Of a stretch of 64,000 bases of DNA, positions 3,262 to 51,212 are shown piece after piece (the stretch's first letter is position 1; the number at the start of each line of letters is the position of its first letter). Made by a program: the position numbers and the translations under genes. The notes under the pieces are model-generated. The model saw nothing but the letters and a program-made list of their open reading frames with translations. It had not been told where the DNA came from and searched no databases. The DNA lies in the IMG/VR virus record IMGVR_UViG_3300029305_012082, positions 1 to 64,000 of that record. The stretch is one strand, 5' to 3'. This DNA comes from a virus. Its lineage: Duplodnaviria; Caudoviricetes.

Positions 3262-3753
3262 ATGGGACGTGGAGCCACGAAAGCAGCCGGCAATCTCTGG
3301 TACGAAGCCAGAATAAACGCAGCAAAATATAACGACAAGCTATCTAGTCGTGAAGGTGCTGCCGAGTTGCTGGGATGCTCGGTTGATGTGCTTGTTAGAG
3401 TTGAAAATGATCTTTACAAGTGCATGCCCGTGGAGACAGCGATTCTTATGGCCGACCTGTACAATGCCCCTCATTTGCTAAATCACTACTGCAGAAATTG
3501 TCCAATCGGATGTGATAGTCCCATATCCGACGAAAATCCAGACTTGGATCGTGTGACTGTGAAACTTCTGAAAAAGCTGAAGCTAGAAAAGATAGCCAGC
3601 ATTAAAGAGAGATTGCTCGAAATCGCAGAAGACGGGGTTATCAGTGAGGACGAAAAACCGGAGCTGGAAGAGGTTGTAGGTTTTTTAGAAGAAATTGTCA
3701 CGACTGTCAGCGAACTTAGATCGATCACAAGAAAAGTATTAAACGGAGGATGA
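3262..3753 (+). CDS. Phage regulatory protein (HTH; CII/YmfL-like)
   Basis: SREGAAELLGCS HTH and IAEDGVISEDE C-terminus; ATG after GGAGG. Confidence 0.7.
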   Translation: MGRGATKAAGNLWYEARINAAKYNDKLSSREGAAELLGCSVDVLVRVENDLYKCMPVETAILMADLYNAPHLLNHYCRNCPIGCDSPISDENPDLDRVTVKLLKKLKLEKIASIKERLLEIAEDGVISEDEKPELEEVVGFLEEIVTTVSELRSITRKVLNGG

Positions 3754-3756
3754 ACC

Positions 3757-3921
3757 GTGGAGGCATACAGATCAGCGATAAGGATTCTAGAGGAAGAATA
3801 CGGGATCACCTCTTTAGAAGAATTGCAAAATGCAATCCGCAAAATAGGTCCGATCGATGTAAGCCTGTTTTGTGCAGATATAGAACCTGAAAAAAGGAGA
3901 ACTCGCCATGAAAAGAAATAA
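3757..3921 (+). CDS. Small hypothetical protein (54 aa, not in ORF track)
   Basis: GTG after GGAGG; open frame filling the gap between neighbouring genes. Confidence 0.55.
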   Translation: MEAYRSAIRILEEEYGITSLEELQNAIRKIGPIDVSLFCADIEPEKRRTRHEKK

Positions 3922-4654
3922 CAACAAAGCAAGATCTGGATGCTTGTTTTTAAGAAGAGCACTTGCGTTTGTAATTGTTGCAATTGCATTTTCGCTTGTT
4001 ATTGCAGACACAGCAAAAAGCCATGACACAAACACCGAAATGAGCATAGCTTCGCAGTCCGGAAGCGAACAGAATCGGCCCGAGGCAACTGTTGTAGCTG
4101 CGGCTCAGGAAACCCCTGAGGTTGTCGTACATACTGTTTCTGCTGAACTGATCTGTACTGTGAATTATGAAGAAAAGGACGTCTCGACCGGACCTGAACC
4201 ATCCGAACAGGAAGACATAGACACAGAAGCAGAAGATGAGATCCTTTACTACACGGAAGAAGACGTTCTTGCTCTTGCTCAAATGGGAGAAGGAGAAGCC
4301 GGCGGAATTCCTTCCGATATGGAGGTAGCTGCAACGATGTGGAGTGCCTGCAATCGCTTAGACAGCGGAGATCCCTATTATGCTGGGCTTGAGTCCATCA
4401 AGGATATCGTCGCTCAGCCCTACCAGTATCATGGCTACAATCCTGATCGAGTTCCTTCAGAAAGACTTATGGCTCTTGCCAGAGATGTTCTGAGCAGATG
4501 GAATGCAGAAAAAAATGGTGCAACTGATGTGGGGCGTGTGCTTCCCCGCGAGTATATGTTCTTCCACGGAGATGGCTGGCACAATTATTTCACCACAGTT
4601 CCGGGCGGGTATGATGTGTACGATTGGTATCTTGGTTCCCCCTACGAGAGTTGA
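3908..4654 (+). CDS. SleB-like cell wall hydrolase with N-terminal TM/signal segment
   Basis: LAQMGEGEAGG...NRL...IVAQPYQY motifs of the Hydrolase_2 family. Confidence 0.8.
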   Translation: MKRNNNKARSGCLFLRRALAFVIVAIAFSLVIADTAKSHDTNTEMSIASQSGSEQNRPEATVVAAAQETPEVVVHTVSAELICTVNYEEKDVSTGPEPSEQEDIDTEAEDEILYYTEEDVLALAQMGEGEAGGIPSDMEVAATMWSACNRLDSGDPYYAGLESIKDIVAQPYQYHGYNPDRVPSERLMALARDVLSRWNAEKNGATDVGRVLPREYMFFHGDGWHNYFTTVPGGYDVYDWYLGSPYES

Positions 4655-4665
4655 GGAGTAAGCAC

Positions 4666-4917
4666 ATGGATATGCTTGAACAACTTTCAGACATTGTATT
4701 TGCGGTGCAAGACGAAACGAAGTATCCGTTCGACCTTTCTGAAATCTTTCGAGTGATGCAACATACTCTCCGGAAGATCGAATTAAACGGACAAGGCGAT
4801 GGATACATTCCCATCTTGTTTAGAAATGAGCTGCAAGATCTCGTTATGAGACATGAAATCAATAAGAGAGGAAGCGAAAGAACATGTGTAGTCTCTGCAA
4901 TTCCAGCCCTTGTGTAA
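4666..4917 (+). CDS. Hypothetical protein
   Basis: ORF with GAGGAG RBS within the early operon. Confidence 0.6.
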   Translation: MDMLEQLSDIVFAVQDETKYPFDLSEIFRVMQHTLRKIELNGQGDGYIPILFRNELQDLVMRHEINKRGSERTCVVSAIPALV

Positions 4918-14924: not shown

Positions 14925-15137
14925 ATGAAAGAAACACCCAAGCTGACCGTTGATCTCACTGACGTCAAAAAGGAACTCGCGAAGCTTGCTCGGCTCCATG
15001 CTGACAAAGTAACCGAAGCAAATCGGATGGCGCAAAGTGACGATACACCGTTTTCCGAGGTGATTAAATATCAGTTTGACGAACTGTGCCATAGTGGTTT
15101 TGTACAAGGGATAATCGAAGCGATGAAATTGCTGTAA
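14925..15137 (+). CDS. Hypothetical protein
   Basis: AAGGAG RBS. Confidence 0.6.
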   Translation: MKETPKLTVDLTDVKKELAKLARLHADKVTEANRMAQSDDTPFSEVIKYQFDELCHSGFVQGIIEAMKLL

Positions 15138-15188
15138 TTAGACCGTAAATCAATACAAATATACTTAGACAAGAAAGGATTTTGCAAA

Positions 15189-15842
15189 ATGGCTATCAAG
15201 AAGACTGAACTCGTTGAAATCACCCCCATCAAGGTCAAGAAGGTTGCGCTGAGAATTGTCGGCGACTCCCCGCTGCTGGTTCATGCGTGGAGTGAAAAGG
15301 ACAAGAAAATGATGCTGGACGCACAGATGGGGAAGGCGAAGGGCAAGAAAAAGGACCCCAAGAACCCTGTTGCAGACTTTATCAACTCCATGTACTGGCT
15401 CGACAACAAGCCCGAAGAGATGACGATGGAGGCTTTTGAAGAGTCCATCCAGAACGGTGCCCGCTTCGGCTTCCCTGTATCTGGTCTCAAGCAGGCTGCT
15501 ATCAGCGCAGCTTACAGAATGGGCTGGGTCAAAGACAAGATGGGCCTGAGAGGCGCATTCTTCATCGAAGCAGACAGGGACGGTATGATTGAGATCAAGG
15601 GCGATGCACCCGAAATGCGGGAAGACATGGTCAAGGTCGGCATGGGCACCGCCGATATTCGCTACAGGGGCGAATTCCGTAATTGGTACGCAGATATTGT
15701 CTTGACCTACAATGAGGCTGGCCAGTACAGCCTGGAGAACATTGTCAATATCATCAACGCTGGCGGCTATGTGTGTGGCATCGGCGAGTGGCGTCCCGAG
15801 AGAGACGGCCAGTACGGCATGTTCCATGTAGATATTGCCTAA
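15189..15842 (+). CDS. Stand-alone Cas7/RAMP-like RNA-binding protein, candidate effector for the adjacent GGY-NN array (VIPR-like)
   Basis: RAMP-like layout: N-terminal LRIVGDSPLLVH, FPVSGLKQA helix, DIRYRGEF, C-terminal Gly-rich loop GGYVCGIGEWRPERDGQYGMF. Confidence 0.75.
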   Translation: MAIKKTELVEITPIKVKKVALRIVGDSPLLVHAWSEKDKKMMLDAQMGKAKGKKKDPKNPVADFINSMYWLDNKPEEMTMEAFEESIQNGARFGFPVSGLKQAAISAAYRMGWVKDKMGLRGAFFIEADRDGMIEIKGDAPEMREDMVKVGMGTADIRYRGEFRNWYADIVLTYNEAGQYSLENIVNIINAGGYVCGIGEWRPERDGQYGMFHVDIA

Positions 15843-15865
15843 CAGCATAAGCAGCTTCCCTACAT

Positions 15866-16076
15866 GGCTTAACAGGCTGGGCTAGGCAAGGTGACGTGAG
15901 TTATGTTGAGTCGAGGCTGGGTGCGGCGCGGTCTAACAGGCGGGGCTGGGTCAGGCGTTGCAAGGCGGGGCGCGATGGGGCAAGGCGAGGTTTAACAGGC
16001 GAGGTGAGGCGTGGCAAGGCGCGGTGAGGCTTGGCGAGGCGAGGCGGGGCAAGGCTAGGTGCCGCCCAACAGGCAA
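15866..16076 (+). ncRNA. Array of GGY-NN pentamers in three AACA-delimited units (candidate guide-RNA array)
   Basis: Units 15875-15934 (12 pentamers), 15939-15993 (11) and 15998-16067 (14); AACA at 15871, 15935, 15994 and 16068; 30 of 37 pentamers start with GGY and the rest differ by one base. Confidence 0.8.
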
Positions 16077-16113
16077 GAAATTATAAACCAACAACGACAA
16101 GGAGAAATCAACT

Positions 16114-16569
16114 ATGGTTTATCAATACAAACCCAGATCGATGATTAAAGCACCTGCACAGGTAGCAGGAGAGATGTGCGAGAGGCTATCTCAGACCGGT
16201 GGCCTTACCCCCAAAAGGCTGGTAGATGCAAACCGTGATGTGAACGCACCTCTCCACAATGAGTTCGAGTGGAATGATGAGATCGCAGCCGAAGCGTACC
16301 GAGAATCGCAGGCGGCGCACATTATCCGGTGCATTGTAATTAAACCGGAAGTCAATGAAGAGACGCCGATGAGAGCATTTGTAAGGGTTACGGAGGCAAC
16401 AAGCGACTACACGCCCATGAAAGTCGTGATGAGCAGTGAGCAGATGATGGAGTCTTTGCTTGTATCTGCGAGAAAGGAAATGGAGACATTCGTCAAAAAG
16501 TACACCGGCGTTCAGGAACTGAACAGAGTGATCGAGAGTATGAACGAAGCGCTCTACATCGCCGGATAA
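16114..16569 (+). CDS. Phage protein downstream of the array (putative accessory factor)
   Basis: LTPKRLVDANR...PLHNEFEWNDEIAAEAYRESQA motif; AAGGAG RBS. Confidence 0.75.
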   Translation: MVYQYKPRSMIKAPAQVAGEMCERLSQTGGLTPKRLVDANRDVNAPLHNEFEWNDEIAAEAYRESQAAHIIRCIVIKPEVNEETPMRAFVRVTEATSDYTPMKVVMSSEQMMESLLVSARKEMETFVKKYTGVQELNRVIESMNEALYIAG

Positions 16570-16683
16570 CTACAGCTTTAATTCTGCGGCTCGTTTCGGA
16601 ATCACATGGGATAAAAGCTATACAAAACGAGCTGCAGTTTTCGCATCATATATGCTCAGCATCGAAAATAAGGAGAAAAACGA

Positions 16684-17016
16684 ATGCAAGCACAATATAT
16701 TAAGGTGAACCTTCCGCTGACAGAAGAAGATTATCAATCCGGTAACGGAGAAGGCGTTTGGGTCATTGTAGATAACAAGACAAAGGCTGACTATTATCAC
16801 GACGCTTATGGACCTGGATTTGTAGGAATGCTGGCCAACGACAGTTTTTACTATCCCGGACTGTGCTGTGGAGACTCTGTCGAGTTCGAAATGCGCGGTG
16901 ACAAACGTCCTGTAGCAGATTATCACAATTTCCTTTGTGGTCGCACAAAACTTACGAAAGAGGGCAAAGCCATTCTCATTGCTGCAATTGCAAGTCAAGG
17001 AGGAAATCCGAAATGA
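16684..17016 (+). CDS. Hypothetical protein
   Basis: AAGGAG RBS. Confidence 0.65.
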   Translation: MQAQYIKVNLPLTEEDYQSGNGEGVWVIVDNKTKADYYHDAYGPGFVGMLANDSFYYPGLCCGDSVEFEMRGDKRPVADYHNFLCGRTKLTKEGKAILIAAIASQGGNPK

Positions 17017-30743: not shown

Positions 30744-30814
30744 ATAAATGTACCGTTCGGCAGCCACCCGTTGGATGCTGAACTCAGAATTACCAGAAAG
30801 AGGTGGCAGGAGAT

Positions 30815-33800
30815 ATGGGTGCATCGAATAACCAATCAGATCGCATCAGAGCATATGCGAAGCTGATTGAGGCACAGACAGGAAGAGCTGTCAGACCATT
30901 TCGCAAGGATGGGTATGTAAATCTCCTTAACCGATATGGGACTGCCAAAGATTCGGCTGAACAGTACCGTTTTGTTGCCGAGCCGATGATACCCGATGAC
31001 ATGCTAACGATGCATTACGAGGGCAACGGCCTGTTTGCCAAGATCATAGACGCTCCCGCTGAAGAAGCCGTCAAACACGGATTCAAGCTGGCAGATATTT
31101 CAGACGAGCAAACCGAAGCGTTCTACCAAGAAGCTCTGGACGAGCTTGATTGGGAAGAAGTCTTTATGACTGGTATCAAGTGGGCAAGACTCTTCGGCGG
31201 TGCAATAGGCGTTATGCTTATCAATGACGGAGGAGCACTTGAAGATCCTCTGAATTGGAAGAACATCAAGTCAATTGATGACATTCGCATCTACGACAGA
31301 TCTGTTATCCAACCGGATTATCAGAGCATGTACACATATAACAGGGAAGACCCCTTCCGAACAAGAGGAAGCAGACTTGGAACTCCCGAAAGATACTTTG
31401 TCAGCAGTAAGTACGGAAACTTCGTCGTCCACGAGAGTCGCTGCCTGCTATTCCAGAACGGTATCCTCCCGGAAAACTGTACGAATTCGATCTATCAGTT
31501 TTGGGGAATTCCCGAATATGTTCGTCTCCATAGAGCGTTACGGGATGCCGAGATAGCCCATGGAACAGCCCCCAAGATGCTGGATAGATCCGTACAGGCT
31601 GTTTACAAAATGAAAGACCTTTCTGCTGAATTGGCAACCGAAGAAGGCGAAGGAAAGGTTCTTCGAAGACTGCAAACCATAGATATGGCTCGTGGTCTTC
31701 TGAACAGCATAACGATTGATAGCGAGGGCGAAGACTATGACTTCCGCACATTCCAGTTTAGCGGCGTGTCTGATGTCATAGATGCAACGTGTAATTTCTT
31801 GTCAGCACTCTCGAACATTCCTCAAACTATTTTGTTTGGAAGATCACCTGCAGGAATGAACGCAACTGGCGAAAGCGATCTGGAGAATTGGTATAACTTT
31901 GTTGACAGAATTCGTGCAAAGAACATCCGAAGCAACCTTCGTTACTTGCTTTCTGTAATCTTCCAAGCTGGTGTTTCGACTGGTGAAATTAACGAAGTTC
32001 CCAAGATCAAGATCGAATTCAATCCGCTGTGGTCTTTGAGCGATGTAGAACAAGCTGATCTCGACAACAAACGGGCAAACACCGAGTTGGTGAAGGCACA
32101 AACCGCACAAGCATACATCGACATGCAGGTCTACGATCCAAGCGAGATCAGAAAGAAGCTTGCCCAAGCAAATGACTTCGAAATCGATGATGTAATTAGC
32201 GAAGAGGATCTGGAAGAAGATTTCTTTGCTTCTTTGGAAGAAACGGCTGAACCTACAACTAGGTTGGCTGCAAACCCCGACGCTGTCCACGAGACAAAGA
32301 CAGCGGCTGAAGGTAGTACGCCTACGAATGCGCCGGCAGCAACGAAGCTTCCTCAGGATATGACGGCGCAGGAAATCGGAGAGGTAGCAAAGAACACCGA
32401 TGAAGATGATGCAGTGTGGAATCCTTTTGGCGTTGGCGTTCTTGTAATAAAGGATGGAAAAATTCTTACTGGAACGAGGCACAATGACTCCGGATATGGA
32501 CTCATCGGAGGCCCCGGTGGTCATGGAGAAGAAGGTGAAAGCCCTGAAGAGGCAGCTTTTCGTGAAACCGAGGAAGAATTCGGTATCAGCGCAAAAGAAC
32601 TGATCCCCATTGGATTAGGCCCTTTTGAACCCGAAAGTGGGCTGCAATCTCATCTTTTCATCTGCACAGAATATGACGGTGAACCCGACTGTGTTGATAT
32701 GGAGATGGTCAATCCCAAATTCCGCACCTTGGAAGAATTGGAACAGCTGGATGCGTCCCTGTTCCCACCGTTCAAGGACAGCTTAGAGATCCTGAAAAGG
32801 GAACTCTGTGGAAAACGGGATGACGGTGGCCCCGGCTCCGGTAACTGGGGACATGCTGGTAGACCCGGTAAAAAGGGTGGCTCTTCAGGAGGTGGCGGTG
32901 CACATAACCGCATGGGATCTTCTGAGGAAGGATATACTTCCTTCTCCAAGGAAAAAAAGAAGATGGCAAAGCCGCACAAGCTCTCTCACGAAGAACTTTC
33001 CAAGTGTCCCAATGGTACTGTCATCGCTGGCATGGCTGGTCACTACAAAAAAGCCAAGATTGAAGTTTGGAACAACGAGACGTTCGACTATGAATTTAAG
33101 GAAGGCTTCGTCAGCGATGACTGGGGAGATTTCCTTGAAATCGATCAGGTAATTTCTGCTGCCGGTAACGATTCCTATGGTCTCGCAATTCCCGACAGCG
33201 CCAACAAGAACTACCTCAAACCGAAGGGAGATCCTTTCTCTGACGAACGGAGAACCAACGCATTCAAGGCATCTGAAGCTCGTGATGCTGATGACCTGCT
33301 CAGAGAGAAAAGTGGACATATTTGGCGAGGACTGGATGATGCATCCAAAGATGCCCTCGTTGGATACACGGGCGAAACATACTTTGATATAAACAGCGGC
33401 TTACGAAATGGCTATAATGTATCAGACAGCATCCGGAAAGACACGGAACTCTTGACAAATGCAATTTCTCAATCTGTTCTGGATAGAGACATGTATCTGT
33501 TCCGTGGCACTAGCAGCAGCGCGGCAGAGAAACTTTTCGGCTTAAAATCTGGCGATCTCGCTACTTGGAGCGGTCAGATCGAAGATCTGAGCACATTGGT
33601 CGGAACACGAGGTATCGACAACGGCTTTTTGTCCTGCGGAACGTCTGAAGGCAAAGGATTCACCAGCCGAGATGTCCAGTTGAAGATATACTGTCCTGCC
33701 GGAACACAGGCACTTTACGCCGAACCCTTCTCTGCATTCGGACGTGGCGATCAGCGAAGCTGGGATGGTATCAGCAAGCAGAATTCCTTCTCTTCTGAAA

Positions 33801-34438
33801 ACGAAACAATCCTTCAAAGAGGATGTGAGCTGCGTATTGTTGGTGCGGAATGGTCTGGAAACAAGGCTATTCTGGAAGTTGAAGTGCTATCCCAGATGAA
33901 TAATACCATCAAATCAGATGGAGATGACCTAGATGGCTTCTCAAAATCATCGAATCCTGATAATCTCGAAAAACATCTTGACTTTTACGGTCAATCAGCT
34001 ACGATAAAGTCACAAGATAACTTCGATGGCGGCTCCGGCTCCGGAAACCATGGACACAGAGGTGTTAAGGGTCAACGGGGAGGATCTGCAGCAAAGTCCT
34101 CCCATCCCAAAGTCACAAAGTTCACAACCCAGAATGGGAGAATGAAGATTACTTCAGATCTTAAAGTCAAAGCGAGTAAATCTGGGAAAGTATCTGTTAC
34201 GATAAAAGCGGGACAGGAAATCGAAGGGATTTATTCTTTTGCTGGGAAGGGGTCGAATGCAAATCTTGTGGTATCCGGCACACTGTCCAAACAATATGGA
34301 GGCAAACCGAAAGACTGGTCCCACTTGTGTGGTTATGCAACCGTTGTCAATTCAAACGGAAGCCAAGAACGGGCGGAGATCCACTGGTTTGAGCATGAAA
34401 CGGTAGGCCAGATAAATTTCAAAGTTAAAAAAAGGTAG
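30815..34438 (+). CDS. Portal protein (DUF1073-like) fused to Nudix hydrolase, ADP-ribosyltransferase and a C-terminal putative toxin domain
   Basis: Portal motifs RLFGG and IPQTILFGRSPAGMNATGESD; Nudix box GHGEEGESPEEAAFRETEEEFG; ART motifs Y...IN..LR, LFRG, GFLS, ENE; C-terminal AEIHWFE. Confidence 0.85.
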   Translation: MGASNNQSDRIRAYAKLIEAQTGRAVRPFRKDGYVNLLNRYGTAKDSAEQYRFVAEPMIPDDMLTMHYEGNGLFAKIIDAPAEEAVKHGFKLADISDEQTEAFYQEALDELDWEEVFMTGIKWARLFGGAIGVMLINDGGALEDPLNWKNIKSIDDIRIYDRSVIQPDYQSMYTYNREDPFRTRGSRLGTPERYFVSSKYGNFVVHESRCLLFQNGILPENCTNSIYQFWGIPEYVRLHRALRDAEIAHGTAPKMLDRSVQAVYKMKDLSAELATEEGEGKVLRRLQTIDMARGLLNSITIDSEGEDYDFRTFQFSGVSDVIDATCNFLSALSNIPQTILFGRSPAGMNATGESDLENWYNFVDRIRAKNIRSNLRYLLSVIFQAGVSTGEINEVPKIKIEFNPLWSLSDVEQADLDNKRANTELVKAQTAQAYIDMQVYDPSEIRKKLAQANDFEIDDVISEEDLEEDFFASLEETAEPTTRLAANPDAVHETKTAAEGSTPTNAPAATKLPQDMTAQEIGEVAKNTDEDDAVWNPFGVGVLVIKDGKILTGTRHNDSGYGLIGGPGGHGEEGESPEEAAFRETEEEFGISAKELIPIGLGPFEPESGLQSHLFICTEYDGEPDCVDMEMVNPKFRTLEELEQLDASLFPPFKDSLEILKRELCGKRDDGGPGSGNWGHAGRPGKKGGSSGGGGAHNRMGSSEEGYTSFSKEKKKMAKPHKLSHEELSKCPNGTVIAGMAGHYKKAKIEVWNNETFDYEFKEGFVSDDWGDFLEIDQVISAAGNDSYGLAIPDSANKNYLKPKGDPFSDERRTNAFKASEARDADDLLREKSGHIWRGLDDASKDALVGYTGETYFDINSGLRNGYNVSDSIRKDTELLTNAISQSVLDRDMYLFRGTSSSAAEKLFGLKSGDLATWSGQIEDLSTLVGTRGIDNGFLSCGTSEGKGFTSRDVQLKIYCPAGTQALYAEPFSAFGRGDQRSWDGISKQNSFSSENETILQRGCELRIVGAEWSGNKAILEVEVLSQMNNTIKSDGDDLDGFSKSSNPDNLEKHLDFYGQSATIKSQDNFDGGSGSGNHGHRGVKGQRGGSAAKSSHPKVTKFTTQNGRMKITSDLKVKASKSGKVSVTIKAGQEIEGIYSFAGKGSNANLVVSGTLSKQYGGKPKDWSHLCGYATVVNSNGSQERAEIHWFEHETVGQINFKVKKR
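33978..34005 (+). promoter_or_regulatory. Internal promoter TTGACT-16-TACGAT inside the portal fusion gene
   Basis: Exact family match, followed by AAAGTCA as at 34649. Confidence 0.65.
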
Positions 34439-51093: not shown

Positions 51094-51105
51094 AACCTCT
51101 GCTTC

Positions 51106-51212
51106 GGAATTTCCGTGGAATTTCCGTGGAATTTCCCGCGACTTTCCACGGAAATTCCGGCGCAACCGTAACCGTAACCGTAACCGTAACCAATATACCG
51201 TAACTATATATA
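51106..51212. repeat. Iteron-like GGAATTTCCGT repeats, (AACCGT)4 tract and AT-rich tail (copy 2)
   Basis: 11-bp tandem repeats; 35-bp identity with 1755-1789. Confidence 0.85.

Follow-up and report, generated by a model that had tools for sequence, protein, structure and literature searches.

A probable VIPR locus with a tail-less, AACA-joined guide array in a temperate phage of Clostridia from gut or rumen

What might a phage gain from a lone gene for a Cas7-like protein that is followed by a non-coding, G-rich tract repeating every five nucleotides? This question is raised by positions 15189 to 16569 of a 64,000-nucleotide stretch of viral DNA (IMG/VR record IMGVR_UViG_3300029305_012082; the whole stretch is referred to here as the window), a region predicted from its sequence to encode an RNA-guided system. 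The analysis indicates that the region is very probably a locus of the VIPR (Viral Interference Programmable Repeat) kind, carried by a temperate phage with Clostridia of the gut or rumen as hosts and with a mechanism proposed by homology to described systems. The paper announcing VIPR dates from April 2026, covers 667 representative systems of seven types, staggered arrays included (bioRxiv 10.64898/2026.04.26.720920), and was followed by two further studies, the first using cryo-EM and the second concerned with infection biology; a language-model survey recovered 99 period-5 clusters. In the systems of Escherichia phage SUSP1 and P. fulva, one Vipr protomer is bound per GGYNN pentamer, with GGY flipped out and held and NN displayed. 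The resulting filaments base-pair with dsDNA, passing over one target base in every three, and this leads to transcriptional silencing of satellites or prophages.

The window is derived from a temperate tailed phage and its IMG/VR record is classed as a virus. A serine integrase is encoded at positions 1-1707 on the minus strand, and genes for RecT, a DnaC-like loader and an HNH nuclease are also present, followed by those for terminase, portal, protease, major head, tape measure and baseplate proteins, all on the plus strand. The locus is situated between the replication and packaging modules. Prophage relatives occur in MAGs labelled Acutalibacteraceae, Oscillospiraceae, Ruminococcaceae and Lachnospiraceae. 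VIPR systems are mostly carried by phages or proviruses, and this setting conforms to that.

Some features elsewhere on the contig were also observed. The portal gene of the window (30803-34438) continues in frame into Nudix and ADP-ribosyltransferase domains (PHROG annotations: portal, MutT/Nudix, Bxa/ART exoenzyme). Two distant places, 1740-1770 and 51105-51162, contain short tandem repeats of 11 nt that share the core GGAATTTCC, and one of them adjoins the integrase gene. Outside the window, at contig position 75543-76170, about ten copies of GGCATCAAGGCTGGCGATGGC are spaced at multiples of 18 nt; they probably belong to a structural gene, as the coding sequence of a G-I-K-A-G-D-G repeat, and not to an RNA array.

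The locus consists of the following features, all on the plus strand:

15189-15842, plus strand: vipr gene (stop codon 15840-15842), encoding a 217-aa RAMP (Cas7-like) protein, a predicted guide-RNA-binding filament subunit
15843-15870, plus strand: short leader from the vipr stop to the first junction, with neither promoter nor terminator
15871-15874, plus strand: AACA junction 1, at the place of the GGCA junction of related arrays
15875-15934, plus strand: guide unit 1, 12 GGYNN pentamers, 8 perfect, with four consecutive pentamers having lost one G
15935-15938, plus strand: AACA junction 2
15939-15993, plus strand: guide unit 2, 11 GGYNN pentamers, 9 perfect
15994-15997, plus strand: AACA junction 3
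15998-16067, plus strand: guide unit 3, 14 GGYNN pentamers, 13 perfect
16068-16071, plus strand: AACA junction 4, the end of the array
16114-16569, plus strand: conserved accessory (vap-like) gene, 151 aa, phrog_15946

Inspection of the array bore out its predicted layout of three units of 12, 11 and 14 pentamers separated by AACA, the junctions beginning exactly at 15871, 15935, 15994 and 16068. The first guide starts 32 nt 3' of the vipr stop, and the tracts between junctions measure 60, 55 and 70 nt, which are exact multiples of five. Direct counting gave the predicted numbers of pentamers, with perfect GGY in 8 + 9 + 13 = 30 of 37 and a single changed G in each of the other seven, in which the pyrimidine is always kept. 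The tract is 49% G, and Tandem Repeats Finder (TRF), run independently, called a period-5 array at 15997-16059, in keeping with the G-rich, five-nucleotide periodicity originally described. A register-aware scan found the array to be unique on both strands of the 104,687-bp contig, where 0.05 arrays of at least 5 units would be expected from shuffled contigs. Folding of the array region was no better than that of shuffles (z = 0.19), and a search of positions 15000-17000 against Rfam yielded no family at E <= 1, from which it follows that no hammerhead ribozyme is present in the array region; the 4-nt junctions likewise leave no space for a structured 3' tail or a ribozyme. The vipr gene, the tail-less three-guide array and the accessory gene share one strand. 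Neither promoter-like nor terminator-like sites were found from the vipr stop to the next gene, which suggests that the parts of the locus are co-transcribed.

The 217-aa protein was matched by a phmmer search of PDB sequences to chain 36pp_D, "SUSP1 Vipr protein" (E 2e-7), and a profile built from 94 diverse relatives matched 36pp at E 1.5e-13, with SUSP1 Vipr the only match at E <= 0.01 in this profile search. No model in Pfam, NCBIfam or PADLOC matched the protein, and PHROGs places it in phrog_4652, a family listed there as of unknown function. The Vipr family is large: one search retrieved 6,666 homologues, and at 50% identity 2,770 clusters were counted. An AlphaFold2 model of high confidence (pLDDT 96, pTM 0.88) predicts an RRM core with a beta-hairpin thumb (residues 142-163) and a G-loop, CGIGEWRP (196-203). 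The RAMP/Cas7 motifs recognised at the outset (SPLL.H, FP.S.LK and the GIGEWR loop) are all present and can be placed on this model, SPLLVH being RRM strand 1, FPVSGLK RRM helix 1 and CGIGEWRP the G-loop. The Foldseek comparison suggested for the original prediction of a lone Cas7-like protein with an RRM-type fold returned Csm3/Cas7 of type III and type VII effectors as the best PDB matches, Cas7-11 also being matched (best E 6e-6, probability 1.0, 56 matches at E <= 1e-3).

The cryo-EM preprint on SUSP1 Vipr names H17, R138, C173, D177, W178 and R179 as the residues that hold GGY. In a HMMER alignment of the two proteins these correspond to H32, R160, C196, E200, W201 and R202 of the window protein, with the H17/H32 pairing coming from a low-scoring N-terminal segment of the alignment and Asp177 being replaced conservatively by Glu (E200). 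Among the 94 relatives R160, G197 and R202 are invariant, and G199 is invariant or nearly so. Since SUSP1 Vipr matches in sequence and its GGY-contacting residues align, the 217-aa protein is identified as Vipr, with a predicted Csm3/Cas7-type RAMP fold; the likeness to VIPR systems noted in the original prediction is thereby substantiated. The two proteins are distant, and their alignment is confident in the C-terminal third only.

A class 1 CRISPR-Cas system or CRISPR mini-array was also considered and rejected. No repeat-spacer series of the CRISPR type was found in the window, the ORFs sampled belong to phage modules and include no cas genes, the genes next to the locus are phage genes, and PADLOC matched neither gene of the locus, as would be expected from the initial description of a region free of cas genes and CRISPR arrays; the likeness to Cas7 is one of fold only. 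Like Cas7/Csm3 of type III and type VII effectors, the window protein is predicted to possess an RRM core, a thumb hairpin and a glycine-rich loop, and in both Cas7/Csm3 and Vipr each subunit covers a step of guide RNA of fixed length. However, this step is 5 nt for Vipr and 6 nt for Cas7/Csm3, sequence identity is only 10-15%, and the window has no CRISPR array, Cas10, Cas5, Cas6, small subunit or acquisition genes. According to the VIPR papers the guide is discontinuous and the target is dsDNA as opposed to RNA.

The association of the protein with its array was examined in 62 IMG/VR viral loci that encode a Vipr relative at 42-73% protein identity. A GGYNN array on the same strand was identified in 59 of these and on the opposite strand in none; in the other three the sequence ends just after the vipr gene. 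The expectation that homologues would sit beside GGYNN arrays was thus borne out, and in ten complete related phage genomes such arrays occur at the vipr locus only. Entropies at pentamer positions 1 to 5 were 0.33, 0.81, 1.22, 1.88 and 1.98 bits (277 unique units); as the units were scanned by GGY, only the near-maximal values at NN count as independent evidence. Three relatives at 76-81% protein identity (L079, L080 and L063) carry one to five guides whose NN content is unrelated to that of the window. The original prediction held that NN should differ among relatives and would be undermined by invariant NN; the guides do differ. An identical protein with a base-for-base identical array was present in four other metagenome contigs, indicating that the same phage was resampled. 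In IMGVR_UViG_3300013426_000044 (L033) three separate GGYNN arrays were observed near vipr (1045-1290, 3679-3842 and 4579-4722), one approximately 1.7 kb upstream of the gene, one directly downstream and one past the accessory gene.

These comparisons bear on the reading of the tract as a gene for a Gly/Arg-rich peptide, or as a microsatellite generated by slippage. A coding role could be argued from short ORFs of 42-49 aa that overlap the tract and from the equivalent tract of Gordonia phage UmaThurman, which is annotated as a CDS (gp40). Against this, the period is five and not three, stops occur in all three forward frames, and the conserved sites are pentamer positions 1-3 and not codon positions. 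Slippage would not be expected to give units that differ at NN, this being the opposite of its usual outcome, and linkage to vipr is strict in both strand and position, which speaks against either version. Both are accordingly given a negligible probability, and the tract is treated here as an array of guides.

Sequences that these guides might recognise were sought in several collections. On the 104.7-kb contig, self-targets allowing skips of 0-3 nt were not found above the level of shuffled guides; the lack of a self-target has been published for other VIPRs too. Exact patterns with a 1-nt skip gave no match for any of the three guides in IMG/VR and no match for two guides in JGI metagenome contigs. 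The first ten NN of guide 3 were matched in codon register by two IMG/VR contigs, and these were rejected as targets: the genes concerned are unrelated to each other, the match ends at unit 10 in each, and 1-2 such matches would be expected by chance (a rough estimate from codon frequencies for a GAN-rich codon pattern, with approximately 5e10 bases assumed). With up to three mismatches allowed, guide 3 gave one match, against one control match, in 401 genomes from the family of the closest prophage-bearing MAG, labelled Acutalibacteraceae. Under every skip rule applied, no excess over shuffled guides was seen for 181 guides of relatives against 0.5 Mb, nor for 167 guides of the clade against 1.1 Mb of related phage DNA that included the ten full genomes.

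When seven competing models were compared, NN usage was best fitted by positions 1-2 of sense codons in 95 of the 167 guides, and the guides of the window have the same preference (-3.68 versus -3.95 bits per NN for the background). NN usage therefore agrees with the published wobble-skipping register and lends it indirect support.

The absence of a competitor target from every collection searched might favour a Vipr-guide complex that works, but that regulates genes of its own phage or host, or targets RNA, and takes no part in conflict between phages. The locus also lies amid early/middle genes, downstream of the replication module, as a regulator might. Such a role is nevertheless judged unlikely: the phage's own 104.7-kb contig contains no match above shuffled controls at skips of 0-3 nt, published VIPRs bind the dsDNA of other elements, and the high turnover of NN in close relatives fits an arms race better than housekeeping. 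Interference with other elements is the preferred reading.

Junctions of a related kind are found in the relatives. GGCA forms 159 of 190 unit boundaries, and where guides are joined by it the following guide begins one base "early"; the legend to fig. S18 of the discovery preprint (bioRxiv 10.64898/2026.04.26.720920) refers to "staggered vrRNA arrays" with 1-nt overlaps, and the window's relatives possess this published overlap at their GGCA junctions. In the VIPR papers staggered arrays are described from bioinformatics only, and that preprint reports no small-RNA data for them. The window resembles them in possessing a Vipr homologue, an adjoining accessory gene and a phage setting, and in guides (9-16 GGYNN units in the staggered arrays) that are joined directly, with no structured tail or ribozyme. 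It differs in having AACA for GGCA within the same layout (n x GGYNN + 4 nt), so that its junction is not itself a GGY-like unit. Among the relatives compared, AACA junctions occur in the lineage of the window only. A 78%-identical relative (L080:2158-2320) has one guide only, of 16 units, with GCTAACAG at its end and a strong hairpin after it; this relative shares an AACAG motif with the junctions of the window.

The restriction of AACA to this lineage, together with the lost G in seven of 37 pentamers (four of them consecutive in unit 1) and the lack of identified targets, could be taken to mean that the locus is decaying or inactive, its guides disabled by mutated junctions and degenerate pentamers. 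Several observations make this very unlikely, more so than a regulatory role. Both ORFs are intact and the RNA-contacting residues are conserved; the same AACA stands at all four junctions, which looks like a coherent variant and not like random decay; and the array is unchanged, base for base, in the four other metagenome contigs. Degenerate pentamers, moreover, are common among the relatives and were noted in the VIPR discovery paper. Since 4-nt junctions break the 5-nt register, we infer that they delimit the guides. AACA is also a plausible putative processing site, as it stands where published staggered arrays have their GGCA junction.

The remaining component of the locus is the accessory gene. 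A homologue is located beside vipr in 70 of 81 loci examined, and among GenBank phages the accessory protein and Vipr have homologues in an identical set of 33 records from cultured phages, made up of 27 Mycobacterium, 5 Gordonia and 1 cyanophage. Close relatives share the gene order vipr-array-accessory gene. In distant relatives (42-47% identity; L043-L060, L071 and L072) the order vipr-accessory gene-array was observed; it occurs in Alphaproteobacteria, including prophages in Methylobacterium and Ancylobacter. In Gordonia phage UmaThurman (NC_031249), the CDS "gp40 hypothetical protein" at 33362-33685 (L120:2128-2451) is a GGYNN array with GGCA junctions. It is flanked by gp39, which is homologous to Vipr, and gp41, which is homologous to the accessory protein, and directly follows the genes for the immunity repressor and excise.

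The AlphaFold2 model of the 151-aa protein (pLDDT 92.8) has an N-terminal alpha/beta domain and a C-terminal helical hairpin, and H48, F51, A58, A59 and R63 are invariant in the family. Searches of Pfam, NCBIfam and PADLOC gave no matches; a PDB profile search returned nothing below E 0.1 and Foldseek against PDB nothing below E 1.6; BFVD contained uncharacterised homologues only, and the ESM Atlas unnamed viral clusters only. Wide VIA-align comparisons reached Z <= 6.6, mainly over the C-terminal helical hairpin, while residues 9-114 gave weak winged-helix or nucleic-acid-binding rows. The protein is thus a strictly co-inherited partner of Vipr with a confident yet unmatched predicted fold. 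It has been reported in a preprint that SUSP1 requires Vipr plus Vap1 to fend off its satellite, and, according to the VIPR preprint, the vap genes of several types are predicted to encode proteins that bind DNA.

Apart from targets for the 1-nt-skip rule, none of which was found in the collections searched, every feature of VIPR membership that could be tested was found at the locus, except for the tail that is specific to type II. Like the type II VIPR of Escherichia phage SUSP1 (PDB 36pp; vap1), the window has a homologous Vipr, a GGY/NN code and a two-gene locus, and binding of dsDNA with a 1-nt skip is presumed to be common to both. SUSP1 guides, however, finish in an invariant 3' tail whose pseudoknot caps the filament, whereas the array of the window has neither tail nor structure, and for its accessory protein no similarity to a solved or named protein was detected. 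Another described type has hammerhead ribozymes interspersed between its guides, and these too are lacking in the window. With no tail or structure and no Rfam match, the locus is neither of the SUSP1-like type II nor of the ribozyme-interspersed type. It is not categorically new, given that VIPR systems, tail-less staggered arrays among them, have already been published.

By homology to SUSP1, vipr, array and accessory gene would be transcribed together and Vipr protomers would bind the guide RNA, one per pentamer. GGY would be held by His32, the thumb residue Arg160 and the G-loop residues Cys196, Glu200, Trp201 and Arg202, leaving the NN pairs exposed. The filament may then pair with dsDNA by reading NN-x-NN-x, with one base skipped, usually the wobble base of a codon, and this pairing would keep a competing phage, satellite or prophage from being transcribed. 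The AACA junctions would mark where one filament and its guide end and the next begin. The original prediction, in which each subunit grips GGY and displays NN to give a discontinuous guide for silencing between phages, agrees with the description of VIPR in the preprints and, by homology, very probably applies here.

How guides are matured and finished without a tail invites a more tentative suggestion. It is possible, though on balance doubtful, that in tail-less VIPR the register-breaking 4-nt junction (mostly GGCA, AACA here) is the sole punctuation of the filament and that the 151-aa protein, which has an invariant H48/F51/R63 motif, cuts, loads or caps the guides or acts at the target. 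If true, this would constitute a route of maturation or effector action unlike those of the pseudoknot-capped and ribozyme-cut VIPR types described.

The locus leaves the known picture of how VIPR works unchanged. It represents a clean and compact tail-less "staggered" example from a phage of gut or rumen Clostridia, and it shows that the junction between guides can be AACA instead of GGCA. It has been proposed that the CRISPR RAMP effectors descend from VIPR and that VIPR is a minimal platform for programmable DNA binding, and the presence of the same architecture in cultured Mycobacterium and Gordonia phages, where an array has been annotated as a protein gene, offers tractable laboratory systems for its study.
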